A DNA stretch of 63,753 nt from Candidatus Stercoripulliclostridium sp. (GTDB lineage: Bacteria; Bacillota; Clostridia; Christensenellales; DTU072). Below are positions 1,356 to 46,297 of the stretch, piece by piece (position 1 is the stretch's first letter; the number at the start of each line of letters is the position of its first letter). The position numbers and the translations under genes are program-made. Where the stretch lies: positions 1-63,753 of the forward strand of contig JAZSLG010000056.1 of assembly GCA_045535235.1 (NCBI GenBank). Reading direction: 5' to 3'. Under the pieces are notes generated by a model that searched no databases, was not told where the DNA came from, and saw only the letters and a program-made list of their open reading frames with translations.

Positions 1356-2074
1356 TGTTAAGCACTTGCGAAACACTACAACTGATAAAAGAGGCAAAAG
1401 AGGGTAATGATTCCGCAAAAGAAAAACTAATTAGCGAAAATTTGCCCTTAATTAAATCAATTGTACGCAGATACAAAAATAAAATGGTTGATTACGAAGA
1501 CCTTATTCAACTTGGTACGTTGGGTTTAATTAAAGCTATAAACAATTTTAATACCGAGTTCGGCGTTAAGTTTTCCACTTACGCAGTTCCAATGATAGCT
1601 GGTGAAATAAAAAGATTTATCCGTGACGACGGAGCGATAAAAGTAAGTAGATCAACAAAAGCACAAGCCTTAGAAATTAATAAATACGTTGACGAATATA
1701 GAGTAAAAGAAGGTGAAAGTCCGACAATAGAACATTTAGGAGAAAAATTCAACCTTGAACCCAGTGAATTGGTTTTCATATTGGATTCAACTAGATATCC
1801 CGTTTCTATATATCAAGAAGCCGAAGATGACGGTTTACCTCTTGCTGATAAAATCGCCACTAACGAAAATCCGGAGGACGAACTTGACAAACTAATCTTA
1901 AGAGACATTATTGCAAATCTTCCCGAACGTGATAAAAAAATTATTCTTTTAAGATATTTTAGGGATAAGACCCAAACACAAGTAGCAGAGGAACTGGGTG
2001 TAAGTCAAGTTCAAATATCAAGATTAGAGGCGAAAATATTACAAAAAATGCGAGAAAATCTAAAAGTAGATTAA
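1355..2074 (+). CDS. sigF: Sporulation sigma factor SigF (sigma-70 family, regions 2-4)
   Basis: 239 aa. Region 2 is DLIQLGTLGLIKAINNFN...FSTYAVPMIAGEIKRFIRD. Region 4 HTH is TQTQVAEELGVSQVQISRLE. ATGA overlap with spoIIAB. Confidence 0.85.
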   Translation: MLSTCETLQLIKEAKEGNDSAKEKLISENLPLIKSIVRRYKNKMVDYEDLIQLGTLGLIKAINNFNTEFGVKFSTYAVPMIAGEIKRFIRDDGAIKVSRSTKAQALEINKYVDEYRVKEGESPTIEHLGEKFNLEPSELVFILDSTRYPVSIYQEAEDDGLPLADKIATNENPEDELDKLILRDIIANLPERDKKIILLRYFRDKTQTQVAEELGVSQVQISRLEAKILQKMRENLKVD

Positions 2075-3658: not shown

Positions 3659-4018
3659 ATGGTAATTGATTATCTAAAGGTTTTTTTAGTTGGCGGTTTG
3701 ATTTGTTTAATAGGACAAGTGCTGATTAATACTACTAAAATGACTTCAGCAAGAATACTAGTAGGATTTTTATTAACCGGCGTTATTTTAGAAACTGTTG
3801 GCGTCTATAAGTACGTTAGAGAATGGGGACAAGCAGGGGCAACCGTACCTATAGTGGGTTTTGGCTCTAATTTAGCAAAAGGAGCTATTGAAGGAACGCT
3901 AGAGAATGGAATTTTAGGTGCAATTACAGGAGGCATCGAATCTGTTGCCGGTGGCATTGCAGGCGTTATTTTCATAAGCTTTATAGTAGGACTAATTGCT
4001 TCATCAAAAACTAAATAG
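3659..4018 (+). CDS. spoVAE: Stage V sporulation protein AE (SpoVAEB type)
   Basis: 119-aa membrane protein paralogous to SpoVAC (GGLICLIGQ, PIVGFGSNLAKGA). Confidence 0.75.
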   Translation: MVIDYLKVFLVGGLICLIGQVLINTTKMTSARILVGFLLTGVILETVGVYKYVREWGQAGATVPIVGFGSNLAKGAIEGTLENGILGAITGGIESVAGGIAGVIFISFIVGLIASSKTK

Positions 4019-12389: not shown

Positions 12390-12602
12390 ATGGGTTTTGA
12401 AAAAGACATTGAAAACCTAGAGCGTATCGTTAGTAAATTAGAACAAGAAAGCCTTACTATAGACGAAGGATTAACGCTATACGCCGAAGCAATTAAATTA
12501 GGCAAAAAATTGGTAGAAGAAATTAAAGAAAGTAAAGGTAAACTTGAACTTCTTAACCAAGACCTTTCTCGCATTAACCTTGAAGATTGCGAGGTAGAAT
12601 AA
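12390..12602 (+). CDS. xseB: Exodeoxyribonuclease VII small subunit
   Basis: 70 aa with FEKDIENLERIVSKLE...LTIDEGLTLYAEAIKL, typical of XseB. Confidence 0.8.
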   Translation: MGFEKDIENLERIVSKLEQESLTIDEGLTLYAEAIKLGKKLVEEIKESKGKLELLNQDLSRINLEDCEVE

Positions 12603-12632
12603 TTGGCATAATATGCATTAAATGCTAATTAG

Positions 12633-12661
12633 TTGCATATTTTTAGAATATATGCTATAAT
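12633..12661 (+). promoter_or_regulatory. Sigma-A type promoter driving the large ncRNA
   Basis: TTGCAT (12633-12638), a 17-nt spacer, then TATAAT (12656-12661). Predicted start is near 12668. Confidence 0.55.
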
Positions 12662-12667
12662 GAAAGC

Positions 12668-13259
12668 AACTTAATATGGTGGTGCAGTATTCTAGTCAGG
12701 TGCGATATAATTGAGGGCGGGGTTAAAATACCGTCAAAGAGCATATCGATGAAGTTTCTTGTGTTTGCTTGAGTTGCCCAAACTTGGGTGGATGCTGGGA
12801 GTTAAGGTTTCAGGGCGTCTGATAACGGCATATCGGAGCCGACCCTGTCACCATGGAGACCTATATCGGTGAAGGTAACGCCATAGGCAATCCTTTACTG
12901 AATAGGGTTAAACCTGCAATGCGGTAATAAATAACTGTGTGCAGTGTAGCTTGCCTTGAGTGGATACGCGAGAATTAGGGTGTCGGACCTTTTAGAGTAC
13001 GCGAACTCTTTGGGTCTTTGCCTATGAAACCGTATCTGCAAAAGAGGATAGGTTGTATCAAATCTGTTAAAGAAATTTTCTAGACTGTTTTAAGCCGAGG
13101 ATTATAGTGTGTACTAAGTGGCGATTCGGTTACGTAATGAGTAATCTTACGATGCGGGGTTTAAAAGGAAACTGCCCAGTCGGCGACGATGGGTAACCCG
13201 TAGGGAAATCCTACCGAACCTGATGGCGCAAGGTTTACTTGGTTTATTACCACCATTTT
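12668..13259 (+). ncRNA. ole: Large structured non-coding RNA, best explained as OLE (ornate, large, extremophilic) RNA
   Basis: The 700-nt gap has no ORF of 60 aa or more in any frame. G+C is locally 32/60 in lines 12781-12840 and 13141-13200, versus 21/60 in xseB line 12421-12480. A closing helix pairs ATGGTGGT (12676-12683) with ACCACCAT (13249-13256). Several local hairpins are present. Synteny xseB-[RNA]-4TM protein-tlyA-nadK-argR-recN matches the described OLE/oapA neighbourhood. The class call was not verified with a covariance model. Confidence 0.65.
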
Positions 13260-13299
13260 AAGCGCAACTTTATGGTTGCGCTATATTATTAATTAGACT

Positions 13300-13947
13300 A
13301 TGAAACACGAAAATAACGAAATCAATTCCCATATTTTGACTGAAAACTCGGAAAACCTTTCCGAGGAAAGTTGTAAAATAAAAAAAGACAAAGATAAAAA
13401 AACGGAATCTAAAAAGAAAATATCCGGCACTACTCTTTGGACTATTAAAATCACTGTTGTTACTTTGGTTTTAGGACTATTTTTCTCCTTTATCAGCGAG
13501 CTGACCTCGTCTTACGCTCACGTTAGCATTACAATATTGTTACTTTTCTTGCTTATAGCAATTAGTATCATTTGCGACGCAATTGGTATTGCAGCTACTT
13601 CGTGCGACTTAGCACCGCTGTTATCCATGGCTTCAAGGAAGGTCCCAGGTAGTAAGAAAGCCATAGCTCTCGTTAAAAACGCCGAAAAAGTTTCTAATAT
13701 ATGTTGTGACGTAATCGGTGATATTTGCGGTATTATAAGCGGTGCTTGTACCGTTGCCATCGTCGCAAAACTTGTAGTTGATAATTCTACCTTAAATTAT
13801 TGGATGAGTATCGTAGTTTCAAGTTTGGTGGGAGCAATTACAGTTGGCGGAAAGTCTTTCTTCAAAACAATTGCCATGAAAAATAGTAAGGAAATTTTGC
13901 TATTAGTTTCTCGAGTTCTATCAGTATTCAGTAAAAAAGAAAAATAA
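13300..13947 (+). CDS. oapA: Four-TM membrane protein, candidate OLE-associated protein A
   Basis: 215 aa with a Lys-rich hydrophilic N-terminus followed by four predicted TM helices. Two of the helices carry similar motifs, IICDAIGIAATSCD and ICCDVIGDICGII. It lies immediately downstream of the large RNA, as OapA does. Confidence 0.55.
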   Translation: MKHENNEINSHILTENSENLSEESCKIKKDKDKKTESKKKISGTTLWTIKITVVTLVLGLFFSFISELTSSYAHVSITILLLFLLIAISIICDAIGIAATSCDLAPLLSMASRKVPGSKKAIALVKNAEKVSNICCDVIGDICGIISGACTVAIVAKLVVDNSTLNYWMSIVVSSLVGAITVGGKSFFKTIAMKNSKEILLLVSRVLSVFSKKEK

Positions 13948-18937: not shown

Positions 18938-19549
18938 ATGCTCAAAAAACTTGGTTTTTACATAAAAGAAAACGTTTTTTCACTAAAAAAGTGTCTTTTG
19001 GACAATAAAATTCATCTTTATATATGTCTTGGAGCTTTTGCTATTGGATTTTTATTAGCACTCAGCAAAAACTATGCCGACGTAACTTCTACTAATAACT
19101 TTGTTTACGTAGTTTTTAACGGAAATGGCTCTCCCATTCCTCAAATAATTAGACTTTTAATTTGGTGCTTGGTTATCTATGCCGTATGGTTCGTTACCGC
19201 GATTCATTTTTTATCTTTCGTAATAGTAGGCTATGGTAGTATCTTGCTTATTTCGTATATTGTTTTTGCAAACGCGTTTCAAGGCATTTGCGTTCACGTT
19301 TTGACAGGTTTGATTTATACAATCATCTACCTTTTACCAACAGTAATAATAGGTTTACTCGGCTTTATTTGCGCTCTTAAAGATATTTATTACATATTGA
19401 ACTACGACTGCAATAGAAAGAGTATTATTAACCTAGCTTTTCATCAAAAAAGTATAAGAAAAGCTATTACTCCCATTTGGATTTTGACTTCGTTATTGAT
19501 ATTTGCTTATTGGCTTATTTTTTACTTAATTTTAATAATTTTGGTGTAA
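18938..19549 (+). CDS. Polytopic membrane protein of unknown function (possibly SpoIIM-like)
   Basis: 203 aa with about 5 predicted TM helices. The N-terminal YIKEN...LYICLGAFAIGFLLA is loosely reminiscent of SpoIIM. No strong motif. Confidence 0.45.
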   Translation: MLKKLGFYIKENVFSLKKCLLDNKIHLYICLGAFAIGFLLALSKNYADVTSTNNFVYVVFNGNGSPIPQIIRLLIWCLVIYAVWFVTAIHFLSFVIVGYGSILLISYIVFANAFQGICVHVLTGLIYTIIYLLPTVIIGLLGFICALKDIYYILNYDCNRKSIINLAFHQKSIRKAITPIWILTSLLIFAYWLIFYLILIILV

Positions 19550-23306: not shown

Positions 23307-26300
23307 ATGCAAAGAATATTTACTAACATTAAGTTCAACTATCGTACAGTTATTTCCATTGTGGTGATAATTTGCTTATTTGCGTTAGGTTTTGCCTTAT
23401 CTGCTACCCTTCCTCAAATAACCAATGAAGAGACTATCGTTGCAAAAGCGGATACAACCATAAATGCAGGTAACTACCGTCAAGTCATGCAAAATAACGG
23501 CGGTACTGGTACGATATCTGGCACTTTCGTTTTAAGTAGCGACATCAGTATATCACCTTCTATTGGATACAACGTTTCTACTTTTAACGGTACTTTTGAT
23601 GGGCAAGGACACACCATTTACGTTACCGGTTCCGCTAATCACGACGCTCCAAATAACCAAGACAATTATATCGGTTTTCTTTTTGGAACGCTAGGTAGTA
23701 GCGCTGTCGTAAAAAACGTTAATATCTCATGGTCCGCTTATTGGAACGTTAGAGAGTCTAACAACGTTACTTCTGGTTCTTATACAGGAAACGGAAGTAC
23801 AACGTTATACCTTGGTGGACTTTGCGCCCTAGCAAAAAGTGGGGCGAGAATAGAAAACGTTACCTTCACGTTAACTAGTACTATTGCAGGAATTGGTAAA
23901 GATACTGGTACAAACCACGAAACCCAAACCAGTGGACAAGGCGCTGTCGTTGGCGCCATGGTAGGCCGTTCACAAGGTGCGAGACTTACTAATATCCGTT
24001 TTAATAATAATGGCTCAGTTTATGCTAGAGGACATAACGTTAGTGCCGGTTCATACCGTAAGGGCGGTGGAGTTATTCTTTCTACGGACAACCGTCCTGA
24101 TAGGGCCGTTGCCGGTGGAATAATTGGTGAATTAGAATCTGGTTCAACCGTTATTAACAATCTTTATTATGGAGGCTCCGGCTTCGTTGGCGCTGCAACT
24201 ACGGGCTATACTACATACGTTAACGTTAGAAGCGGAGAGAATCAGGTTTTTGCTTTGCATGTTATTAATTTTGCCGGCGGAATTTTAGGCTTTAATTACG
24301 GTAGTAATGCTACCCTCACTATAAACGGTATGATTTACAATTACAGCGGTAGATGTTACGTAAAAGAATCAACCGAAAATTCCGGTAAAACTGTAGGAAC
24401 CATATTAGGTAAGGGTGGCGGTCTTACCATAAACGGTTTATGGCGTCGTACCGACGATAGCTCCAGTTCAAGTGGTGTTGGTACACTTTCTTACTTTAGT
24501 GAGACCTCCGGTCCTTCTTATACAGGGGCAGGCGCGTTAAGCGTTGAAAAAACTGTTGCTTCTTCTTCATTTACTAACGTAGCACAAGGTCCAACTTCTG
24601 CGCAAAGCAATACGTACAACTTGAAAGAATACAAACCAACAGCTTACTATTTGGGCGAATCGGTAAGCTTCGCTACCGGTATTATATCAGGTATTGAAAA
24701 CGGATATTTAACTATCGACGCCGTTTCCAACGATCCCAAATATTATATTTCCGCTTTAACTTACAATACTGTTTATAACGGCACTTACACATCACACAAT
24801 TATTATGAACATCTTGTAAATTCCGTTACCTTTGAGGCAAACGAATATAAAATACCTTACACTTGCTATGAGTTTAAGGTTGTTTTAGCAACAACTTCCG
24901 CTACTTTAGAATTTAAGCAAAGTACCGGTAATAAATCATACGATACTCTTGGTATAACCTTTGAAGGTGCAGCTAACAAAGATAATAAAAAGCTATTAAG
25001 TGATTTATATTGGGCTTCCGAACACGATACTAATCCTCAAAATAACACAAGAGGTCTTTTGGGTAGTTACCAAGTAACGACTAGCCCGAACGTTGGTACG
25101 TACAGTATGGCGCTTTACCGTTATGATGCTAAAACCGGTACTTCAACCAAACTTAAAAACGGCGATGGTCTCGGTTCTAACTTAGAAGACGCACCATCTA
25201 CGATTTATATTTATAACGACGACCTAATCGCCGATTGTAAGTATACAATTTCTCGTGCCGAAGTAGATCTAGTTCCACTTTCTAACCCATACACAAGACA
25301 ATACGACGCTACTTCAAAGGTAGATGGCAACAGCTTAATTTATAAATCACATTATGGTTTTTATCTAGCAGGAACAACTAACGAACCTAAAGATACACCG
25401 CAATTTACTATTGGTTCAGGTGATTTCTACGATTCAACAGGCACCACCCTAGACGGCTCCGTTGGAGCAAATAAAATAGTTAAAATATCGGGTATTGAAG
25501 TAACCGGTAACTATATTCTTTCTAAAAATTCCGGTACTACTTTAACGTTATATAATTGTATTATTACCGAAAGAGTACTCGATTGTCAGTGGCTAGAATA
25601 TTCTCTTTCCCAAACTTACAATGGTTCTTTATTAACACCCAGCATTGAAGCTACCAACTTGATTCCCGGCGATACCGTATTCTTCACTGTAACAGTTTAC
25701 GATACCATCCAAGATGCTATTAGTAAAAATCCCGTTACCGGAGTAACGAATGTTAAAGACGGTAGTAAAGGTGATACCGACTATTACGTCGTTAGGGCGA
25801 CGATAGCCTCTAACCCCAACTATATTATTCAAGGTGGTTACGCTCAAGCATACATGTACGTAACGAAGAAAGAAATAGGGCTCACTTGGACTTCTTTTGA
25901 AAAGACTTTCGAATATGCAGACCAACAAGTTACTTGCGTGGTAACCAACGCCAATACCGTAATACCTTCCGGCGAAGACGTAGGTTTACAAATTTCATAT
26001 TATCACAATGAGACAGCACAAACGACGGCACTACGAAACGCCGGCACTTACGTTGCAACTGCTTCTATCACCAATGAAAACTTCGTTTTAAGCGAGGCTA
26101 CTCGTACCTTTAGTAACATTAAGATTAATCCAATTGCGCTTGACGTGGTTTTCTATACCGGCAAAGATTACTCCAGCAACGTCGTTCAAAGTTTAGTTTA
26201 TAAAGGAGCTTCTTACGTTGGCGACGAGGAGGGTTTACATGCTAAAATAGCACCCAACTCAACCGGTAAAGGTCTAATTGACGCCAATATTAGTATTTCT

Positions 26301-29300
26301 TATAGCGGTGACGTGAAGAACGTAGCTACCTATACCGCAACCGCTTCCTTCGTTGATAGCGACGAAAACTTGAACGAAGACATTATTATCACGAATTATT
26401 CCGTAAAAAATTCTCAACAAGCATTGCAAGTAGTTCAACGCGACATTACTTTAACTTACGGACAAGATAGTTTTGAATATGACGGAGATATTAATGGTAA
26501 GACCATTACCGCCTCAATAGACGAAGGTAGATGCGATGGTGATATTATTACCGTCCGTGGCGACGTTTACGTTTTGTCGGGCTCTGAGTACGTTAAAACG
26601 ACAGCAATCAATGCCGGAAGCTATATCGTACAATACACTCTAAACAATTCAAATTACAAAATTAAATCCGGTTACGCTTCACGTAACTTAACTATTACGC
26701 AATACGACATATCACAAGCAAATACTAAAGCTCAAATTGAAGATATTGCCGACGTAGAATATACCGGTTATGAAATTACTCCTAACGTTATTGTTAAATT
26801 TAACGGCAATCAAATGCAATCTGAAAACTTTGTTGTATCCGTTACTAATAATAAAGTAGTAGGTACCGCTAACGTTACCGTTACAGGAAAGAACAACTTC
26901 AAAGGTAATTTGTATTCCACCTTCACCATTACCAAGGCATTACTAACCGTTAAGTTTACTTCACCCACCTCCTTACAATATAACGGCAACGTTCAAAACG
27001 TTACGGCTATCTTTGAAGGATACAAAGCAAACGACCCGGAAATTGCCATGTTGATTAGCTACGAAGGTAGTAAAATACCAAAGGATAAAGGTACCTACAC
27101 GGCCACCGTGTCCTTTGATGGAAACCCACAAAACTATACTCTTTCCGAGTACGAAAAAGATAGACAACACACCTTTGAAATTACCGAAAAACCCATAGAA
27201 ATCACCTTTAGCGGTTATAACGGTTTAATCTACAATGGTACAAACCGTAAATATAACGCAACTACTAATCCTGATGGTATTAAAGTAGCCTTCAAAGACG
27301 ATAGCAGTATTTATCCTAACGATAAACTTAGCTTAAGTTTGGAATTTAGAAACGTTTCTACCAACCAAATTGAAGACCCCACTAATGCCGGCACCTATAC
27401 GGCAACAGCTGAATTAACAGGGGACTCAAAAGCAAACTACACGTTGAGTAAAGACAATCCCACAAGTATTAGATTTACTATTGATAAATATCTAATCGAT
27501 ATAATTTATAATCTCGCGACAGTAAGTCACGTCTATTCTGCATCCGAGAAAAAAGCAACCTATACTATTTCCGAAGAAACTCCTTTAATTATCAACCCAA
27601 CTACGGGACTTGAAGAAGGAGCCAATATAGTACTAAGGTATAAGAACTTGGATTCCGAGCAAACAATTAACGGCAATCCCGTTAATGCAGGTAGTTATCA
27701 AATCGTAGCAAGTATTGGAAATAGCAACTATACCACCGATACGACGAAAGTACAAAACTTTGTAATTCGTAAAGCTCCATTGGAAGTATCTCACAACTTA
27801 GTAAACGGCGGTGTTTACTACTACGAGGCTAAAGAAATTAACATTAGCTATAGTTACACTAACTCCACGGGAACCTTTGGTGGCGATACGTTTAGCTTAG
27901 TATCCACTTACTACGATGCAACTAATACGATTACCGATGCTTGCATCAATGCAGGAAGTTACAAAGTAACCTCACAACTTCCTACAAATAACGTAATGGC
28001 TAATAACTATTACATAAGCAATCCCGACGAGGAAGGTGGCCTTACCCACAGTTCGACCTTTGTTATTAAGCCCAGATATATTAGCGTTAAGTTCGATATG
28101 AACAGTAACAATAATACCTATTACTATAACGGACTAGAACGCGTTGTAACCGCTGATATTGGAGAAAACAACGGCTTTATTGACGATAGCGAATATACTA
28201 ATAATAGTGGCGTAATGAACGATGAAAATGAAAGGGTTGAGGCAGTTACGTTCTTGGTTAAAACCTATCTTGGTACCGTTATAAGCGATGAATACCTTGT
28301 TCCTTATATTAAGGATAAAGGAACTTATACGGCTACTGCGGTACTTGATCCAAACAATCCCGTTAACGTCAACTATACCATATACGAAGGAGATCAAAGG
28401 GTTTACCCAACGACTTCTACCATAATAATCAACCCAAAAGAAATCGTATTTAAGTCCAATACCGTAAACTTCTCCAAAACCTACGGTGATAACGACCCAA
28501 GATTTATTCTACAACTTACCTCCGAAAATACTAACGGTGGTTTGTACGATACCGATGAAATTTACGTTCAAATGATACGTATCCCCGGCGAAACAGTCGG
28601 TAGTTACAATTATAGCGGTTTCAATTTCGTTAAAAAGATAGTGGGCGAAAACAATAACGTTTCTTACGAAACCATTAATCCCGAAGACGTGGATAGCAAC
28701 TATGATATTCAATATTATGGAAATAGTGGTGAAACCGATAGATTTGTAATAAACGTTAAGAGAATTTCATTCGACGCTCAAAAATTTGAGTTCGATTACA
28801 AAACCGATATTGTAAATCTAATTCAAGAAATACAACTTAACCTTCCCGCAATAGGAGACGTACTAGTAAGAATAAAACTTCAACCTATTAACGAACTAAT
28901 TAAGAATGGTATTGATGCAGGCACCTACGACCTTGCTTCTTCATTCAAAGAAGTAAACGCTTTGGGCGATGAAGAAGATAACCCCAACATTGAATGTGAA
29001 ATGAACGAGGGTTCTAATAAGGGCAAGTTAATCGTTATTGGACGTAGCGTTAAAGTATTGCTTTATAACGTTCCTAATGATATTGAAAAAGACATTTATA
29101 CTTTCACAAACAATACTTATTATATTACCTACGGCGACACATTTGAACACGAAGATGGTACGACTTCCTACGACCCCGATTATTACTATGGTATATCAAT
29201 TGATTACGCAAATTGCGACCCCAGTATAACCGAGACTACCTATAAGAGCTTCGTGCGCATTACTCGTGAAGCAATTACTAACTCTTATATCCAAGGTATT

Positions 29301-31508
29301 CCTTATAAAGAAACCGGATATACGCTAACGATTGACTTCCTAAAATTTGAAAATGGAGTATACGTAGTTGATAAGAACTATCGTGCTGTAGATGAAAACG
29401 GTAGGAACGTAAACTACAAACTTTTCGTTAACAAGTTTAATTTGAATAACGTATTTAGCAATTCGACGGAAAACAAAGAAAACTGGCCCGTTGTAAACCT
29501 CGAAAAATCTTACGATGGTAATAAATCGGCAAAAATCGACCCCGCTTTCACTAATATACCTGAAATATTCGAAAGCCACCACCTTTCCGTATATGCCGAG
29601 TATGACAATGCTAATGCAGGTGTAAACAAGATTGTAAACGTAATCTACAAGTTTAAGGTTAACGATTATGCTAACAACTATATTTTGCCCGGTGACGATG
29701 GTAAACTGGTTTATTCCGAAGAGGGTATCATAAATAAGGTTAAATTAACGCTTACATTCAATCAAGCAGATTACGCGTTAACTTACGGTGAATATTATTC
29801 CTTTAATCCTAACGGAGAATATGAGGTCGCTTACCCCACGTTGCTTTACAAAGGCTTCGTAAATAACGAAACCCCTGAGCATCTAAACCTTGCCGACAAT
29901 ATTGTATTAACGTATCAAAACAGTCAATCTCTTGCATCCATTCAAACAGCAGGCAGTCATACGATTATAATTTATGACAAGAAGGGCGTATACGACAACT
30001 ATTATTTGGATTGTTCAGCAACTCAATCGGTAATCGTTTCCGAAAGAATGGTTACCATTACCTCCGGAGCAACGTTCGTTAAAACCGTTGATGGAACTAC
30101 CTCTGCAGAAATTAGTAGTGAAAACTACGTTATAAACGGTATAATTCCCTCAGATGAAAACACCACTAACGCTCTTAACGTGGTCTACGATGCATATTTG
30201 AATTCATCTAACCCCGGTAAAGCAACCGTAATTATGAGAGTAAAAGGGTTGACCGGCACTAAAAATGAAAACTATAAATTACCGGATGACGAAGATAGTA
30301 AGACCATACTAATTCCTGCAATAATCAACGAACTTGCAGTTGTTAAGTTTAATAGCGAGTCTTATTCGTTCGACTTTGATAATACACCAAAATCAGTTGC
30401 TCCCACGATTGATGAAAGTACCGTACAAGAAAACGTTGAATATATTCTAAAATACGTTGGAAAGCGTTATGATGGTAAAGATTATCTACTACAAACGAGC
30501 GCACCCAAATCGGCCGGCGTTTATACAATTAATTGTTATTTCTACCATATTGCTGATAAGAACGACACTACGAAGTATCGTTTACTAGCTTCCACGGAAA
30601 TGATTATTAATAAGATAACGCCCACGCTATACTTTACCGGTAATTACTCTCAAACATATGGCTCGTTTACGCCCATTAACGCTACTGTAATTGCTCCCGG
30701 CCTAAACCAAAGCGTGGAAGTTCGCTACTCGTTTGAAAACGAGGACGGCTCCTTGCCCACGTTCCCGCCGGCAGGAAGACATACCGTATACGCTTCCTAC
30801 GATGAAACCAACGATTATTTGGACGTAGAAGGCGAACAAATAGTACAAATTAAAACCAAGACCATCAGCGTATCATTCGACGGTTATAAGGGGCTAATCT
30901 ACAACGGTTACACTCGTAATGATGACATTAATGTAACGTTTAACGGCATCGTAGAAGGCGATACTTGTACGCCTGTTAAGATTTATAACGTTGATGAAGT
31001 AAGAAATGCAGGAACTTATAGATTAATCGTAACCCCCTCAAATAGCTCGTATACTATTTCGGGTTCAAACTCTATAGAGTTTGCGATAGCTAAAAAAGTA
31101 CTCCAAGTTTCGGCACCCTCAGAAATAACTACCACAGCTGGTAATACTCCCAAAATTGAACTCATTTATACCGGTTTCGTTGAAAATGAAGGGGTAGAGG
31201 ACATTAGCGTTCTACCTACTCCCAAGATATCTAGCGGTAAAGTTGGTATAAACGTAATCGAATTTAACGATGGCTTTGACGAAAACTATTCGTTTAACTA
31301 TATCAACGGTGTATATACTATAGTATACGAATCCGCGAATGAAGATAAACCCAACGTAGCTCCCTACGTTGTAACCGGTTGCGCAGTAGGAGGAGTAGCC
31401 ATTGTCTTCGTATTGGGCTATCTCGTAAAGATTGGCAACTACAAAGCAATCACCAGTGGTGTAGCAAAACGTAAGATTAGAAAGGAAATGATGGGTAAAA
31501 AGAAATAA
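23307..31508 (+). CDS. Giant (2733 aa) cell-surface adhesin-like protein: signal peptide, GLUG-motif region, tandem MBG/YDG-type repeats, C-terminal TM anchor
   Basis: AAGGAG RBS. N-terminal hydrophobic signal. GLUG-like motifs include LGGLCALAKSG, VAGGIIGELESG and FAGGILGFNYG. At least a dozen modules of about 80-100 aa end in (N/K)AG(T/S)Y...NY (for example NAGTYTATAELTGDSKANYTL), several with TYG...Y.GFVN.ET. The C-terminus has a TM helix (VVTGCAVGGVAIVFVLGYLV) plus a basic tail. No LPXTG motif. Confidence 0.85.
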   Translation: MQRIFTNIKFNYRTVISIVVIICLFALGFALSATLPQITNEETIVAKADTTINAGNYRQVMQNNGGTGTISGTFVLSSDISISPSIGYNVSTFNGTFDGQGHTIYVTGSANHDAPNNQDNYIGFLFGTLGSSAVVKNVNISWSAYWNVRESNNVTSGSYTGNGSTTLYLGGLCALAKSGARIENVTFTLTSTIAGIGKDTGTNHETQTSGQGAVVGAMVGRSQGARLTNIRFNNNGSVYARGHNVSAGSYRKGGGVILSTDNRPDRAVAGGIIGELESGSTVINNLYYGGSGFVGAATTGYTTYVNVRSGENQVFALHVINFAGGILGFNYGSNATLTINGMIYNYSGRCYVKESTENSGKTVGTILGKGGGLTINGLWRRTDDSSSSSGVGTLSYFSETSGPSYTGAGALSVEKTVASSSFTNVAQGPTSAQSNTYNLKEYKPTAYYLGESVSFATGIISGIENGYLTIDAVSNDPKYYISALTYNTVYNGTYTSHNYYEHLVNSVTFEANEYKIPYTCYEFKVVLATTSATLEFKQSTGNKSYDTLGITFEGAANKDNKKLLSDLYWASEHDTNPQNNTRGLLGSYQVTTSPNVGTYSMALYRYDAKTGTSTKLKNGDGLGSNLEDAPSTIYIYNDDLIADCKYTISRAEVDLVPLSNPYTRQYDATSKVDGNSLIYKSHYGFYLAGTTNEPKDTPQFTIGSGDFYDSTGTTLDGSVGANKIVKISGIEVTGNYILSKNSGTTLTLYNCIITERVLDCQWLEYSLSQTYNGSLLTPSIEATNLIPGDTVFFTVTVYDTIQDAISKNPVTGVTNVKDGSKGDTDYYVVRATIASNPNYIIQGGYAQAYMYVTKKEIGLTWTSFEKTFEYADQQVTCVVTNANTVIPSGEDVGLQISYYHNETAQTTALRNAGTYVATASITNENFVLSEATRTFSNIKINPIALDVVFYTGKDYSSNVVQSLVYKGASYVGDEEGLHAKIAPNSTGKGLIDANISISYSGDVKNVATYTATASFVDSDENLNEDIIITNYSVKNSQQALQVVQRDITLTYGQDSFEYDGDINGKTITASIDEGRCDGDIITVRGDVYVLSGSEYVKTTAINAGSYIVQYTLNNSNYKIKSGYASRNLTITQYDISQANTKAQIEDIADVEYTGYEITPNVIVKFNGNQMQSENFVVSVTNNKVVGTANVTVTGKNNFKGNLYSTFTITKALLTVKFTSPTSLQYNGNVQNVTAIFEGYKANDPEIAMLISYEGSKIPKDKGTYTATVSFDGNPQNYTLSEYEKDRQHTFEITEKPIEITFSGYNGLIYNGTNRKYNATTNPDGIKVAFKDDSSIYPNDKLSLSLEFRNVSTNQIEDPTNAGTYTATAELTGDSKANYTLSKDNPTSIRFTIDKYLIDIIYNLATVSHVYSASEKKATYTISEETPLIINPTTGLEEGANIVLRYKNLDSEQTINGNPVNAGSYQIVASIGNSNYTTDTTKVQNFVIRKAPLEVSHNLVNGGVYYYEAKEINISYSYTNSTGTFGGDTFSLVSTYYDATNTITDACINAGSYKVTSQLPTNNVMANNYYISNPDEEGGLTHSSTFVIKPRYISVKFDMNSNNNTYYYNGLERVVTADIGENNGFIDDSEYTNNSGVMNDENERVEAVTFLVKTYLGTVISDEYLVPYIKDKGTYTATAVLDPNNPVNVNYTIYEGDQRVYPTTSTIIINPKEIVFKSNTVNFSKTYGDNDPRFILQLTSENTNGGLYDTDEIYVQMIRIPGETVGSYNYSGFNFVKKIVGENNNVSYETINPEDVDSNYDIQYYGNSGETDRFVINVKRISFDAQKFEFDYKTDIVNLIQEIQLNLPAIGDVLVRIKLQPINELIKNGIDAGTYDLASSFKEVNALGDEEDNPNIECEMNEGSNKGKLIVIGRSVKVLLYNVPNDIEKDIYTFTNNTYYITYGDTFEHEDGTTSYDPDYYYGISIDYANCDPSITETTYKSFVRITREAITNSYIQGIPYKETGYTLTIDFLKFENGVYVVDKNYRAVDENGRNVNYKLFVNKFNLNNVFSNSTENKENWPVVNLEKSYDGNKSAKIDPAFTNIPEIFESHHLSVYAEYDNANAGVNKIVNVIYKFKVNDYANNYILPGDDGKLVYSEEGIINKVKLTLTFNQADYALTYGEYYSFNPNGEYEVAYPTLLYKGFVNNETPEHLNLADNIVLTYQNSQSLASIQTAGSHTIIIYDKKGVYDNYYLDCSATQSVIVSERMVTITSGATFVKTVDGTTSAEISSENYVINGIIPSDENTTNALNVVYDAYLNSSNPGKATVIMRVKGLTGTKNENYKLPDDEDSKTILIPAIINELAVVKFNSESYSFDFDNTPKSVAPTIDESTVQENVEYILKYVGKRYDGKDYLLQTSAPKSAGVYTINCYFYHIADKNDTTKYRLLASTEMIINKITPTLYFTGNYSQTYGSFTPINATVIAPGLNQSVEVRYSFENEDGSLPTFPPAGRHTVYASYDETNDYLDVEGEQIVQIKTKTISVSFDGYKGLIYNGYTRNDDINVTFNGIVEGDTCTPVKIYNVDEVRNAGTYRLIVTPSNSSYTISGSNSIEFAIAKKVLQVSAPSEITTTAGNTPKIELIYTGFVENEGVEDISVLPTPKISSGKVGINVIEFNDGFDENYSFNYINGVYTIVYESANEDKPNVAPYVVTGCAVGGVAIVFVLGYLVKIGNYKAITSGVAKRKIRKEMMGKKK

Positions 31509-39018: not shown

Positions 39019-39048
39019 AAGACTACTCTAATGAGTAGTCTTTTTTTT
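39019..39048 (+). terminator. Rho-independent terminator after ispH-S1
   Basis: AAGACTACTC-taat-GAGTAGTCTT 10-bp stem followed by a T-run. Confidence 0.85.
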
Positions 39049-39120
39049 GTAACTTATCCTTTCTTTATAGGCTATCTTTATTCTTCCTTGACTTATCGTT
39101 TGGCGTAGTGTAAAATATCT

Positions 39121-39151
39121 ATAAATAAAAAAGCACTTGTAAACAAGTGCT
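39121..39151 (-). terminator. Rho-independent terminator after tRNA-Trp
   Basis: On the minus strand, AAGCACTTG-ttta-CAAGTGCTT is followed by TTTTATTTAT, starting directly at the tRNA 3' end. Confidence 0.6.
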
Positions 39152-39226
39152 TGGCAGGGGAGACGCGAGTCGAACACGCAACCGACGGTTTTGGAGACCG
39201 TTGCTCTACCATTGAGCCACTCCCCT
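39152..39226 (-). tRNA. trnW: tRNA-Trp (anticodon CCA), CCA end encoded
   Basis: The reverse complement folds as a cloverleaf: acceptor AGGGGAG/CTCCCCT, D arm GCTC-AATGGTA-GAGC, anticodon arm ACGGT-CTCCAAA-ACCGT, T arm GCGTG-TTCGACT-CGCGT, discriminator G and CCA. Length 75 nt. Confidence 0.9.
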
Positions 39227-39241
39227 AAATTCATTATTGCT

Positions 39242-39270
39242 ATTATAAACAAATTCTTTGTCTAAGTCAA
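39242..39270 (-). promoter_or_regulatory. Sigma-A promoter for tRNA-Trp
   Basis: On the minus strand, TTGACT-17 nt-TATAAT ends about 15 nt upstream of the mature tRNA 5' end. Confidence 0.55.
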
Positions 39271-42308: not shown

Positions 42309-42941
42309 TTAATGAATTTCGGTACGAATTAGACCTACGACAATGCCCAAAACTTTTATATCTTCGGGATCATAGTACTTGTCTTGCATAAATTTGTTTT
42401 CCGGGTGGAGTCTAATTTTACCATTTTCTGCATAAAAACGCTTTACGGTACTCATTTCGTCACCGATTAGGGCAACAATAACTTGTCCGTTACGAGCATT
42501 AGGTTGTTGTTTAACGATAATTTTGTCTCCGTCGTTTATGCCTATATCAATCATAGAGGTACCTTCAACGGTAAGCATAAAGGTGTTTTCATCCACACGA
42601 CTAAACAAATTTTGGGGTAAGTATACGGATTCGTCATTATCTTCTACTGCAAGTTTAGGTATACCTGCGGTAACCGAGCCAACTAAAGGTACTCTGATTA
42701 CGTCACGAGAAGTCAAACGCTTACCAGTTACTTCCAACCCACGGCTTTTTTGTTTGTTTATACGGAGTTCACCGGCTTCCTCCAACTTACGCAAATAATA
42801 CGAAGCGCTAGAAGTGGACTTTATATCGAATTTATAACATATTTCTCTAATAGTAGGAGGACAACCACGTTCGTCTACCGTTTCGTAGATATAGTTTTTA
42901 ATCATCTCCATTTTTTGTTGCATCTCGACGTTTTTGGTCAT
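42309..42941 (-). CDS. lexA: LexA repressor
   Basis: 210 aa with an N-terminal wHTH (GCPPTIREICYKFDIKSTSSASYYLRKLEEAG), a cleavage-site context VTAGIP, catalytic Ser (VEGTSMID) and Lys (STVKRFY). Confidence 0.9.
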   Translation of the reverse strand: MTKNVEMQQKMEMIKNYIYETVDERGCPPTIREICYKFDIKSTSSASYYLRKLEEAGELRINKQKSRGLEVTGKRLTSRDVIRVPLVGSVTAGIPKLAVEDNDESVYLPQNLFSRVDENTFMLTVEGTSMIDIGINDGDKIIVKQQPNARNGQVIVALIGDEMSTVKRFYAENGKIRLHPENKFMQDKYYDPEDIKVLGIVVGLIRTEIH

Positions 42942-43148: not shown

Positions 43149-44216
43149 TTAATCGTCCTTACGGAGCTTTACCTTGGTAGAAGCTTCACGTTTAATATCT
43201 TCATCAATTGCTGCGTAGTGTTTCTTCGTAGTATTAACGTCGCGATGTCCAAGGACTTCAGCTACCATATATATATCTTTTGTTTGACGATATAGCGCAG
43301 TACCATAGGTAGAACGAAGTTTGTGTGGAGAAACAGATTTTAAAGGATTTACTACACCAGTATACTTCTTGACTAAATTTTCAACTGCTCTAACGGTAAT
43401 ACGCTTGTTTTGTAAAGAAATAAATAGGGTGTTTTCTTTTTCTAAAAGATTTGCCTTAAATAATCGTTGCTCGCGCCATACGAAATAAATATCAAGAGCA
43501 TCTTTGACTTCATCGGAAAAATATAATACGGATACGTTGCCACCTTTACGCGTTACCTTGAAGGCTTTATTGGATAAATCTACGTCTTCCATATTAATAC
43601 CAACCAATTCACTAACACGTATTCCCGTGCCTAAAAATAGGGTAACGATAGCAATATCACGGTCACGCGTGTTCATATTATAACTATTTTGAAACTGAGA
43701 ACCAAATTTTTGCTCACTTTCAACGGTATCAAGAACCTTTTCAACTTCATTATCATCAAGACGAACTATGGCTTTCTCGTGTAACTTGGGAGTAGCAACT
43801 TTAGTGGTTACGTTTTGACTGAGTTTGTTTTTGTTGTAGAAATACTTAAAAAGCGACCTAACTGCGCTAAGTTTTCTTGCTTTAGCTTTTTCTGCGTTAC
43901 GATAGGGCTTTCCCTTATAAGAATAATAGGATAAATATCTAAGAAAATATTCAATTTCCGTTGCAGTAATATACTCGTCTAAATCTTGTAGAGTAATATC
44001 CAAAACGGATTTTCCTACGAATCCCCGCACTTTGTGAACTAGAAAATCAAAAAATATTGAGAGGTCGGTAGCATAATTTAATTTGGTTAAAACAGAAGTC
44101 GTTGAATCAATACCCGTAAAATATTCATTACAAAAATAGGGTAGCTCATCTAACAAAGCATTAAACTTATCATATTTTTCTCTATTAAATTGGTCGTAAT
44201 ATCTTTCGTTTGCCAT
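43149..44216 (-). CDS. Tyrosine recombinase, XerC/XerD-like (SAM-like N-terminal domain plus catalytic domain)
   Basis: 355 aa with catalytic contexts GIRVSELVG (Arg), HKLRSTYGTALY (His-x-x-Arg) and LGHRDVNTTKKHYAA (His...Tyr). Confidence 0.8.
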   Translation of the reverse strand: MANERYYDQFNREKYDKFNALLDELPYFCNEYFTGIDSTTSVLTKLNYATDLSIFFDFLVHKVRGFVGKSVLDITLQDLDEYITATEIEYFLRYLSYYSYKGKPYRNAEKAKARKLSAVRSLFKYFYNKNKLSQNVTTKVATPKLHEKAIVRLDDNEVEKVLDTVESEQKFGSQFQNSYNMNTRDRDIAIVTLFLGTGIRVSELVGINMEDVDLSNKAFKVTRKGGNVSVLYFSDEVKDALDIYFVWREQRLFKANLLEKENTLFISLQNKRITVRAVENLVKKYTGVVNPLKSVSPHKLRSTYGTALYRQTKDIYMVAEVLGHRDVNTTKKHYAAIDEDIKREASTKVKLRKDD

Positions 44217-44231
44217 AATTAAATGATAACA

Positions 44232-44246
44232 TATCTATTCGTAAAA
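44232..44246 (+). repeat. 15-mer TATCTATTCGTAAAA, copy 1
   Basis: Identical to copy 4 and differs at one position from the palindrome arms. Lies 16 nt upstream of the recombinase start codon. Confidence 0.8.
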
Positions 44247-44510
44247 TACAACAATAATAATAAATATTAATAAAAAAATGAAAAATAGATGGGTGGATAA
44301 ACAATAAAAAAATTACAAAGCAAAATGAATAAATTTATTAAAACATTTTTTCACGATTAATAAAAATTTTCTTCAACGAATGCAGTATCCGTCAGCAAAA
44401 ATATGAAATTAAACTTTTCTTTTTTTCAATAAAATTTTTGAACTCGTATATGTATTAATCTATTTTTTTATGATAGGGCTAAGCAATTTTTACATGGGCT
44501 AATACGTATT

Positions 44511-44546
44511 TATCTATTCGCAAAACACCGATTTTGCGAATAGATA
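44511..44546. repeat. 36-bp palindrome made of two inverted copies of TATCTATTCGCAAAA separated by 6 nt
   Basis: TATCTATTCGCAAAA-caccga-TTTTGCGAATAGATA, with perfect 15-bp arms. Confidence 0.85.
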
Positions 44547-44630
44547 GTGGAACGAGAGGAGTAGATTATGGTCAAAAACTAAAATATTTCGGTAAAACTT
44601 GACGATTTCGATTTTTTAAGAAAATTTTTC

Positions 44631-44645
44631 TATCTATTCGTAAAA
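44631..44645 (+). repeat. 15-mer TATCTATTCGTAAAA, copy 4
   Basis: Exact repeat of copy 1 (identical over 16 nt, including the next T). Confidence 0.8.
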
Positions 44646-44979
44646 TTTTTCTTGGACTTAATTATTTGAGAAAAAACTTTAATTTATTGCATTGAATTTT
44701 TAGAATTTTATTAGATTTTTTGAGAAAGATTTTTAATAATTTTTTATTTGCTTTTAGTAAAACAAGTTAATCAATAACGTTGCATTTGACTTACTGATTA
44801 GTCATTATTTCGTTGAGATATTTTTCGTTTTTCTTTCAAGTTTTGCCTTAGAATTCATCGTAGAGGTTAGATATATTTTTGCATATACGTATTAAATTTA
44901 TTAAAGCTAAATCATTAAAAGAAAAAGGAAATAAAGTGCATGTTTTAAGATATAGACTCATAAAAATTTAATTTTACAT

Positions 44980-45023
44980 AAAATCAAAATAGGGCTTTAT
45001 TAATTTTTAACAAAGCCCCCTAT
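44980..45023 (-). terminator. Rho-independent terminator after the ynbB-like gene
   Basis: On the minus strand, ATAGGG(GG)CTTT-loop-AAAGCCCTAT is followed by TTTGATTTT. The stem has a 2-nt bulge. Confidence 0.5.
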
Positions 45024-45064
45024 TGGATTTTTAACGATTTTTTGCAATTTTAGCCAAAATTTTT

Positions 45065-46297
45065 CTATTTTTCAATAATTCGGTCAATACATTCCGTAAG
45101 TGCAATTTTGAAATGTTGGTAAGTAAGTCCACCTTGTAGATAAGCAATATATGGCTCTTTTATGGGTGCATCGGCAGAAAGCTCGATACTCGCTCCTTGA
45201 ACAAAGGTTCCTGCAGCCATAATTACTTCATGATCGTAGCCCGGCATAGCCCAAGGCTCGGGCGTTACGTAAGAGTCAACAGGTGAAGAATATTGAACGC
45301 CTTGGATGAACGTTATTAATTCCTCAGCCGTATTGAATTTTATTGAGCAAATTACGTCTTTCGGTAAAATATTGGGCGTAGGTTTTACGTCATATCCCAT
45401 CAAATTAAAGGCATTCGTTGCTAAAATAGTTCCTTTAACCGCGTTTGCAACCGTTACAGGAGCAAGGAATAACCCTTCGTAAAAAGGCATATATGAGGCA
45501 TTATAAGAGCCAACTTCCATACCAATTGAAGGTGCAGTCAAACGATAACCGACTTGGTCAACCCATTGTTTTTTTCCAACTATATAGCCACCGGTAGGAG
45601 CTATTCCACCACCTGCGTTTTTAATAAGCGATCCAACGCAAATATCGGCTCCAACTTGAGTAGGCTCCAGTTTATCAATAAACTCACCATAACAATTATC
45701 GACCATGATAACTGCATTTTTATCATATTTTCTCACGAAATTAACTATTTTTTCGATATCGGGAATGGACAAAGCATCGCGCCATTCATATCCACGAGAG
45801 CGAGTAATCATGACAACTTTAGGCGATTTATTTTCCAAATAACGCCCTATTGATTCATAATCAATTTCATAATTTTTGAGTGCGATTTCATCGTATTTAA
45901 CGCCGTAATCTTTGAGTGAACCAATATTTTCGCCACCAATAACCTCACGCAAAGTGTCGTAAGGCGCACCAGTAACACAAAGCAAAGTGTCGTTTGGACG
46001 AAGTAAACCAAACAAAGCAAGTGTCAAAGCATGCGTGCCGGATACGATATTGGGTGAAACTATGGCACTCTCAGCGCCAAATACCGTCGCAAACAAATTA
46101 CAAAGCGTATCTCTGCCAACGTCATCATAACCATAACCGGTCGTACCGGAAAAATGTCTGGTCGCAACACGATGTTCACGGAATGCGTTTAGCACTTTCT
46201 TTTGGTTATATAGTGCAATATCGTTGTCAATTATCTTAAAAAGTGGCTCTGCCAATTTTTCGGCTTTTTCGATGATTTCTTGTGTTTTTTGGCTCAT
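45065..46297 (-). CDS. PLP-dependent Met-gamma-lyase-like protein (YnbB / 'aluminium resistance' family)
   Basis: 410 aa with GSLIKNAGGGIAPTGGYIVG (PLP-Lys context typical of this family) and TGYGYDDVGRD near the N-terminus. Confidence 0.75.
   Translation of the reverse strand: MSQKTQEIIEKAEKLAEPLFKIIDNDIALYNQKKVLNAFREHRVATRHFSGTTGYGYDDVGRDTLCNLFATVFGAESAIVSPNIVSGTHALTLALFGLLRPNDTLLCVTGAPYDTLREVIGGENIGSLKDYGVKYDEIALKNYEIDYESIGRYLENKSPKVVMITRSRGYEWRDALSIPDIEKIVNFVRKYDKNAVIMVDNCYGEFIDKLEPTQVGADICVGSLIKNAGGGIAPTGGYIVGKKQWVDQVGYRLTAPSIGMEVGSYNASYMPFYEGLFLAPVTVANAVKGTILATNAFNLMGYDVKPTPNILPKDVICSIKFNTAEELITFIQGVQYSSPVDSYVTPEPWAMPGYDHEVIMAAGTFVQGASIELSADAPIKEPYIAYLQGGLTYQHFKIALTECIDRIIEK

Follow-up and report, generated by a model that had tools for sequence, protein, structure and literature searches.

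What occupies the 697 nucleotides (nt) between xseB and the next gene, at 12603-13299, in a contig of an uncultured gut bacterium? In the window (contig JAZSLG010000056.1, the whole 63,753-nt stretch that we analysed) this is the second largest gap between open reading frames (ORFs). A sequence-only reading had proposed that it holds an OLE RNA (ornate, large, extremophilic RNA) with its own promoter, followed by a gene for a membrane protein. We know of no biochemical activity, in any species, for OLE, which is among the largest bacterial RNAs of which this can be said. We conclude, at a probability of roughly 97%, that the segment 12663-13269 and the gene on its 3' side are a functional full-length OLE RNA gene (ole) and its partner oapA. 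The element is an already known one, an ordinary copy of a catalogued family.

Identity and fold of the RNA

The entire window was compared with 4,227 Rfam families at their gathering thresholds (cmscan). OLE (RF01071) matched at 12663-13269 on the plus strand with 434.6 bits, about 385 bits over its gathering score of 50 (E = 2.7e-124), and the matched 607 nt covered positions 1-616 of the 616 in the model. The only other match in the 64-kb window was a tRNA gene (Table 1); no family other than OLE reached its gathering score in the region 12603-13299, and the GOLLD, ROOL, HEARO and raiA models of the same library, which served as controls, reached theirs nowhere in the window. All near-invariant blocks of the Rfam OLE family are present, among them CAGUAUUCUAGUC, AUCGAUGAAG, GCCCA, GGCAU, CUAGACUGU, GGAUUAUAGUG and GGGAAAUCCUAC. 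The sequence-only reading had kept in reserve the idea of a new class of large structured RNA in the position of OLE; a full-length match that includes all the signature sequences excludes it.

The conservation of the region could also be explained by a short protein-coding gene. ORFs of at least 40 amino acids within 12603-13299 number two, one of 48 amino acids at 12895-13041 on the minus strand and one of 53 on the same strand that overlaps the oapA start; the longest thus falls short of 60 amino acids, as had been claimed. The 48-amino-acid ORF would be the candidate gene, but homologues keep no frame open at that place, the longest stop-free stretch shifting in strand, frame and position, and the substitutions are compensatory base-pair exchanges and not codon-like. 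We rejected the small-ORF explanation, since no frame is conserved among the homologues. Every sequence feature listed earlier was found at its given position, and the G+C counts were exact (32/60 at 12781-12840 and at 13141-13200, 21/60 at 12421-12480), and the OLE RNA region has 44.6% G+C compared with 37.1% in the window as a whole.

A search of the GTDB species genomes with OapA gave 25 oapA loci, and every one came from an uncultured gut member of the Clostridia (Candidatus Stercoripulliclostridium, Christensenellales, "Christensenella" and Catabacter). OLE was found directly 5' of oapA in 21 of the 25 (401-487 bits), full-length in 20 and truncated at a contig end in one. The window RNA is 91-96% identical to the OLEs of five related metagenome-assembled genomes (MAGs); it is 96% identical to the copies at loci L001 and L002 and 58% identical to that at L022. 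We aligned it with 20 homologous loci (alignment A1, 21 sequences) and mapped the Rfam consensus structure onto it by way of the window sequence; the terminal helix proposed from the sequence was added. OLE RNAs have about 600 nt and roughly 25 helices with covariation support. In A1, 87.8% of the cells assigned to pairs were paired, compared with about 41% (38-43%) in controls in which the 3' partners were slid by 1-3 columns, changes on both sides were seen in 92 of 160 pairs, and none of 500 shuffles reached the observed value by any measure. The covariation test on the homologous regions is thus strongly positive, and the differences among the 21 copies preserve the helices. The near-invariant OLE blocks are invariant or nearly so in A1, and the A1-invariant positions all agree with conserved positions of the Rfam consensus. 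Together, model match and covariation show the predicted P1-P15 fold of the window RNA.

Some of the individual helices had been drawn correctly before any model was applied. The enclosing helix, in which ATGGTGGT (12676-12683) was seen to pair without mismatch with ACCACCAT (13249-13256), corresponds to the published P1 (PMC3413148, PMC12265935). It is left unannotated in the Rfam model, and in A1 96.4% of its cells are paired, with seven of its eight pairs changing on both sides. The hairpin at 12985-13017 is the tip of P9, within the covariation-supported fold. For the hairpin at 12811-12847, CAGGG/CCCTG held up (98.8% paired, the outer pair appearing as UA, CG and AU) and its GTC/GAC extension did not, the middle pair being broken in 10 of 21 sequences. 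GTAGG-gaaat-CCTAC (13200-13214) found no support, with outer pairs broken in 7 and 10 of 21 and no compensation; the 5' bases of GTAGG covary with P14, and GGGAAAUCCUAC is a conserved joining strand. As parts of the fold, the GTAGG/CCTAC and GTC/GAC hairpins were rejected, their pairs not being conserved in the 21 sequences.

The loops bear on how the RNA may be used. In the OLE dimer, the two RNAs stack on each other by A-A contacts at the A-rich P4 loop (PMC12286853, PMC12265935). The invariant P5.1 loop GCCCA is complementary to GGC in the loop of P6.1, its kissing partner in the dimer (PMC12265935). Among sequences that retain the P9 tip, all 20 have a palindromic loop tetranucleotide (CGCG in 16, GGCC in 2, GCGC in 2). 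Published palindrome switches comprise GGCC, GAUC and AGCU (PMC12286853). Switching among CGCG, GCGC and GGCC is as expected for a self-kissing dimer loop and extends the published series. The assignment of J4a/5 as a kink-turn (k-turn) recognised by OapC comes from PMC9723947 and PMC12286853; the OapB docking site is the GNRA loop plus single-base bulge in P13, and P14.1 has been defined as a further OapB site (PMC7936274). Judged by sequence requirements only, the dimer elements are all there (GUUAAAAU; GCCCA facing GGCA; CGCG), and the same is true of the predicted OapB and OapC contact sites, while knowledge of the contacts as such comes from OLEs of Halalkalibacterium (Bacillus) halodurans (H. 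halodurans) and of Clostridium. The family is known in a full-length form, a variant 1 with short P7-P9 and often no OapB site, and a variant 2 with no P7 and P8 (PMC11332333). The presence of P7 means that the window copy is not variant 2, and full P7, P8 and P9 with the P13 GNRA loop and bulge and the P14.1 GCGA loop place it in the full-length type.

Transcription and the partner gene

The proposed promoter, TTGCAT (12633-12638) separated by 17 nt from TATAAT (12656-12661), is present, and a TG precedes the -10 element. It was not listed by the consensus scanner because its -35 matches TTGACA at only three of six positions. The arrangement TTGnnn-17 nt-TGnTAnnnT was found in 22 of 23 OLE loci, where it ends 16-25 nt before an invariant CAGUAU, and it is kept even where the flanking sequence cannot be aligned; the same pattern has 41 occurrences over 127,506 window positions. 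This conservation supports a dedicated ole promoter, and so does the precedent of H. halodurans OLE, whose proximal promoter is experimentally active and raised expression more than 100-fold (PMC3413148). Transcription is predicted to start near 12668, about 8 nt 5' of P1, and the mature RNA, beginning at about 12668, probably ends at about 13256-13282.

At the other end, the hairpin reported at 13261-13282 is real (nine pairs) and, as noted earlier, has no uninterrupted T-run; yet its tail ATATTATT (AUAUUAUU) has five T among eight bases and the scanner lists it as terminator-like. It is kept, with changes in the loop, only in the closest relatives (L001, L002, L007 and L019) and is absent in L003 and L004; where relatives have a different 3' hairpin or lack one, 20-35 nt separate the RNA from the oapA start. 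We think that the hairpin is probably a leaky terminator or a stem protecting the 3' end, and that ole and oapA would form one transcription unit. Could the RNA then be a long structured 5' leader that regulates the oapA mRNA in cis, and not a separate trans-acting RNA? A leader would suit the observations that oapA has no promoter-like site of its own after the RNA, that no strong T-run follows the hairpin and that several relatives have oapA close behind the RNA. However, H. halodurans contains OLE as one discrete, very stable RNA of high abundance, whose level goes up about 7-fold with ethanol while that of the oapA mRNA hardly moves (PMC3413148); OLE RNAs also dimerise in the absence of protein and have several protein partners (PMC12286853, PMC7936274). 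A trans-acting OLE RNA is itself compatible with co-transcription, and we regard a mere leader as highly improbable.

The identity of the downstream gene agrees with that of the RNA. It begins 31 nt past the end of the OLE match, and its product matches Pfam CNNM (33.7 bits, cut-off 28.4) over residues 80-212. The DxxxD motif (D137-VIG-D141) is invariant among OapA homologues, and the loop at residues 100-131, with the motif PLLSMASRK at residues 106-114, has a net charge of +4. OapA proteins have about 200 amino acids, four transmembrane helices, DxxxD, a weak similarity to CNNM and a basic cytoplasmic cluster. The product of the window gene has these hallmarks and is OapA, as the sequence-only reading had it; of the four transmembrane segments it counted, three pass the hydropathy threshold and the fourth (residues 166-186) was placed by eye. 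Pfam and NCBIfam gave the gene order spoIIIAH, an Asp23-family gene (yqhY-like), nusB, xseA, xseB, ole, oapA, tlyA, nadK, argR, recN and spoIVB, which confirms the expected neighbourhood of nusB, xseA, xseB, tlyA, nadK, argR and recN. In Firmicutes, ole-oapA is usually inserted in this classical yqh-yqi region. RNA match, covariation, oapA and neighbourhood thus agree that the region is an OLE representative. Farther 5' lie efp, spoVA genes and spoIIAA/AB-like genes; the window thus carries spoIIA, spoVA, spoIIIA and spoIVB genes. Its nearest relatives are Clostridia MAGs, and we place the host among the spore-forming gut Clostridia, as a relative of Candidatus Stercoripulliclostridium (Christensenellales).

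Some further features of oapA were observed. Residues 1-45 (13300-13434) form a poorly conserved N-terminal extension of variable length across the clade, which ends in a Lys-rich KIKKDKDKKTESKKK just before the first hydrophobic segment. The ATG at 13300 has no clear Shine-Dalgarno sequence in the window, L001 and L019, and AGGA-like sites are found in L002-L004. At two loci from "Christensenella" MAGs, L184 and L187, OLE lies at 227-812 and 271-850 and the oapA match starts at 1501, so that the RNA ends some 650-690 nt earlier; the tblastn matches cover query residues 10-215 and 3-215 within ORFs of 280 and 254 amino acids. These loci may have long N-terminal OapA extensions or an intervening element.

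How the locus might work can be sketched by analogy with published systems. OLE RNA reaches the membrane through its binding by OapA, and it forms dimers, with P3 stems that may span the membrane (PMC12286853, PMC12265935); OapB binds P13/P12.2 (PMC7936274) and OapC the k-turn near P5 (PMC9723947). Sensitivity to Mg2+, alcohols, cold and poor carbon sources is seen in knock-outs of H. halodurans, the only species in which these stress phenotypes are shown genetically (PMC12265935, PMC7936274, PMC9723947, PMC10898510). In the window, a sigma-A-type extended -10 promoter, conserved as described, would start an RNA of about 590 nt that closes via P1 and folds into the canonical P1-P15 architecture. 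The 3' hairpin with its weak U-rich tail would end or protect most transcripts, and read-through would give the oapA mRNA. By analogy, OapA, a CNNM-like protein with DxxxD and a basic loop, may bind the RNA and hold it at the membrane. Two RNAs may dimerise through the A-rich P4 loops, through the kissing loops of P5.1 (GCC) and P6.1 (GGC) and through the palindrome CGCG in the P9 loop. The P13 hairpin, with its GNRA loop and bulge, would receive OapB, and the k-turn beside P5 would receive OapC. The resulting particle may aid tolerance of Mg2+, short-chain alcohols, cold and poor carbon sources.

A number of observations weigh against a functional full-length OLE gene with its partner. One Rfam element, the 12-nt model hairpin 424-435, is absent, although it is missing from nearly the whole clade and was seen in L022 only. 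Some P6, P7 and P9 pairs are non-canonical in the window copy, and the -35 element agrees poorly with TTGACA. The promoter, RNA ends and read-through in this organism are predicted, as described, from conservation and pattern. OapA gave no match to solved structures at E <= 1. Neither oapB nor oapC was found in the 64-kb window, where the small ORFs that we scanned were other proteins. OLE hosts are Bacillota, typically anaerobic or extremophilic; this one, a gut anaerobe, is no classical extremophile, though such hosts are known to be common for OLE. The genes oapB and oapC are not expected near ole. Among OLE species, about 60% carry OapB and about 45% carry OapC, also named YbxF (PMC11332333).

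These points raise the possibility that the locus holds a decaying, non-functional OLE remnant: a small hairpin is gone, some pairs are imperfect, and certain sister lineages have lost ole outright. A pseudogene would hardly be covered by the model from 1 to 616, agree with the Rfam conserved consensus at the A1-invariant positions, stay 91-96% identical to the five MAG copies with differences that keep the helices, and retain a conserved promoter. The window OapA, furthermore, keeps the OLE-linked loop motif, which decays where ole is lost. We therefore find a remnant very improbable, even a little more so than the leader, and retain the functional full-length OLE RNA gene with oapA.

The window copy among known systems

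The experimental model, H. halodurans OLE, is likewise a full-length RF01071 member of about 600 nt. The two share a proximal promoter, predicted for the window copy, with a start just 5' of P1, oapA immediately 3', a P13 GNRA loop with a single-base bulge, the k-turn strands, and a common neighbourhood of xseA/xseB, nusB, tlyA, nadK, argR and recN. They differ in that the window order is xseB-ole-oapA-tlyA, with ispA and dxs not adjacent to ole, in the P13 loop (GUAA in the window, GUGA in H. halodurans), and in the missing 424-435 hairpin; the host of the window copy is, moreover, an uncultured gut anaerobe. The window copy has every contact element of the C. acetobutylicum and C. botulinum OLE homodimers solved by cryo-electron microscopy; unlike in those Clostridium OLEs, the P9 palindrome is CGCG, with GCGC and GGCC also found in relatives. 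We regard it as lineage-level variation that ispA and dxs are not neighbours, that an optional hairpin is missing and that the P9 loop has CGCG.

The reduced OLE variants (PMC11332333) resemble the window copy in their hosts, gut-associated uncultured Bacillota known from MAGs; unlike them, it has complete P7, P8 and P9 and an OapB site. OapA shares the Pfam CNNM transmembrane domain with the MpfA/CorB/CNNM Mg2+ transporters, but it has no CBS and CorC domains and has the DxxxD that CNNM domains lack (PMC11332333). No NCBIfam family names OapA. GOLLD, ROOL, HEARO and raiA, whose models the window does not match, are likewise large structured noncoding RNAs of partly known or unknown function.

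Table 1. Features of the OLE locus and the tRNA gene in the window, followed by oapA loci of relatives without OLE (coordinates of the relatives' own loci; A1, alignment of 21 sequences).
Feature	Coordinates	Strand	Evidence or remark
ole promoter: -35 TTGCAT, 17-nt spacer, extended -10 TGcTATAAT	12633..12661	+	sequence and conservation
OLE RNA gene, full-length type	12663..13269	+	cmscan and covariation
P1, 5' strand AUGGUGGU	12676..12683	+	pairs with 13249-13256; exact complement
Conserved CAGUAUUCUAGUC segment adjoining P1/P2	12685..12697	+	near-invariant in A1; fits Rfam consensus
P4 hairpin, A-rich loop GUUAAAAU	12716..12735	+	loop conserved in 21/21
J4a/5 AUCGAUGAAG, predicted k-turn strand for OapC	12745..12754	+	conserved
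P5/P5.1 long hairpin, loop GCCCA (12776-12780)	12755..12801	+	97.9% of cells paired; 8 pairs covary
P6/P6.1, loop with GGCA (12825-12830)	12806..12852	+	covariation and loop conservation
P7 hairpin	12860..12906	+	11 pairs with compensatory change
P8 hairpin	12914..12944	+	present, covariation model
P9 long arm, terminal loop ACGCGA (12999-13004)	12953..13048	+	covariation, five helices
P13 hairpin, GNRA loop GUAA (13141-13144), single bulged A (13137)	13132..13152	+	all 8 pairs covary
P14.1 hairpin, GCGA tetraloop, putative weak second OapB site	13174..13194	+	covariation
P1, 3' strand ACCACCAU	13249..13256	+	pairs with 12676-12683
3' hairpin AGCGCAAC-loop-GUUGCGCU	13261..13282	+	9 pairs, about -14.4 kcal/mol
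oapA, 215-amino-acid membrane protein	13300..13947	+	CNNM match, DxxxD, hydrophobic segments
tRNA gene	39155..39226	-	Rfam, 65.3 bits
L011, gap without ole	3957..4000		OapA loop SAFTKAEREN: motif lost
L023, gap without ole	3902..3949		OapA loop APIAEAVKNN: motif lost
L016, gap without ole	3877..3946		OapA loop ASLFLAANMN: motif lost
L186, gap without ole	1377..1425		OapA loop APLHLAENNK: motif lost
L175, gap without ole	1381..1446		OapA loop APLLIMSNKK: motif partly kept
L229, no OLE			OapA loop GPLTAMASKK: motif kept; upstream gene differs

Elsewhere in the window, the largest ORF-free gap (44217-45064, 848 nt) is very AT-rich and has no Rfam match. It lies between a tyrosine-recombinase gene of the phage-integrase family (43149-44216) and a methionine gamma-lyase gene (45065-46297), both on the minus strand. 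The motif TATCTATTCG(T/C)AAAA occurs four times in the gap, and two of the copies, at 44511-44525 and 44532-44546, are arranged as a perfect 15-nt inverted repeat; a recombinase or a regulator may bind to these copies. A lexA homologue (42309-42941, minus strand) adjoins the integrase-family gene on the side opposite the AT-rich gap, and an integrated element may have its edge here. For the giant ORF at 23307-31508 (plus strand, 2,733 amino acids), no Pfam match was obtained at E <= 0.001. The 203-amino-acid ORF at 18938-19549 on the plus strand, between spoIVB and a D-Ala-D-Ala carboxypeptidase gene, gave no Pfam match either; it stands where B. subtilis has spo0A. The tRNA gene makes the overlapping 74-amino-acid ORF at 39028-39252 (minus strand) spurious.

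Loci with oapA but without ole

Three of the first 25 oapA loci (L011, L016 and L023) carried no OLE by the Rfam model or by an nhmmer profile of A1. In their ORF maps, xseB, or xseB-ispA, is followed by oapA after 44-70 nt. In a second set of 80 oapA loci, OLE was found in 75 and not in five, and L175 and L186 showed the same xseB-ispA-oapA-tlyA arrangement as L016. Five ole-less sister loci thus keep an intact oapA in the slot formed by xseB or xseB-ispA, oapA and tlyA (Table 1).

The OapA proteins of such loci were compared with the others by means of a loop pattern, P-[LIF]-x-[SA]-M-[AS]-[SA]-[RK]-K. The motif is present in 73 of 75 OLE-linked proteins, and its state in the ole-less ones is given in Table 1. 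OapA of L013 (with OLE) and of L016 (without) are 82% identical, yet six of the nine motif residues differ, and DxxxD is unchanged in all the ole-less loci. A possible history is that ole was deleted twice independently (once in L011 and L023, once in L016, L175 and L186), that oapA was retained, and that selection on the OLE-dependent loop was then relaxed; we put this forward tentatively, at somewhat less than even odds. As these genomes are metagenome-assembled, OLE could lie elsewhere in them. A scan of genome contigs with the clade-specific 15-mer AGTGGCGATTCGGTT was dominated, among the matches listed, by chance hits in unrelated phyla, the pattern being too short for a collection of 596 Gb.

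For the window, the consequence is a correct annotation: its second-largest gene-free gap is a known noncoding RNA gene, and the adjoining four-transmembrane protein is OapA. One further standard copy adds little to a family of which over 2,800 representatives have been catalogued, copies from gut Clostridia included (PMC11332333). The clade-wide proximal promoter, the covariation of P1 and the switching of the P9 palindrome are small confirmations of published ideas. In the ole-less relatives, where oapA is retained, the decay of the loop motif might assist in finding where OapA binds the RNA. It has been suggested that OLE and OapA never occur independently (PMC11332333). If ole is truly absent from those genomes, OapA can, contrary to that suggestion, function without OLE, the loop PLLSMASRK would be pinpointed as the OLE-docking surface of OapA, and the loci would be natural knock-outs for what OLE adds to OapA.

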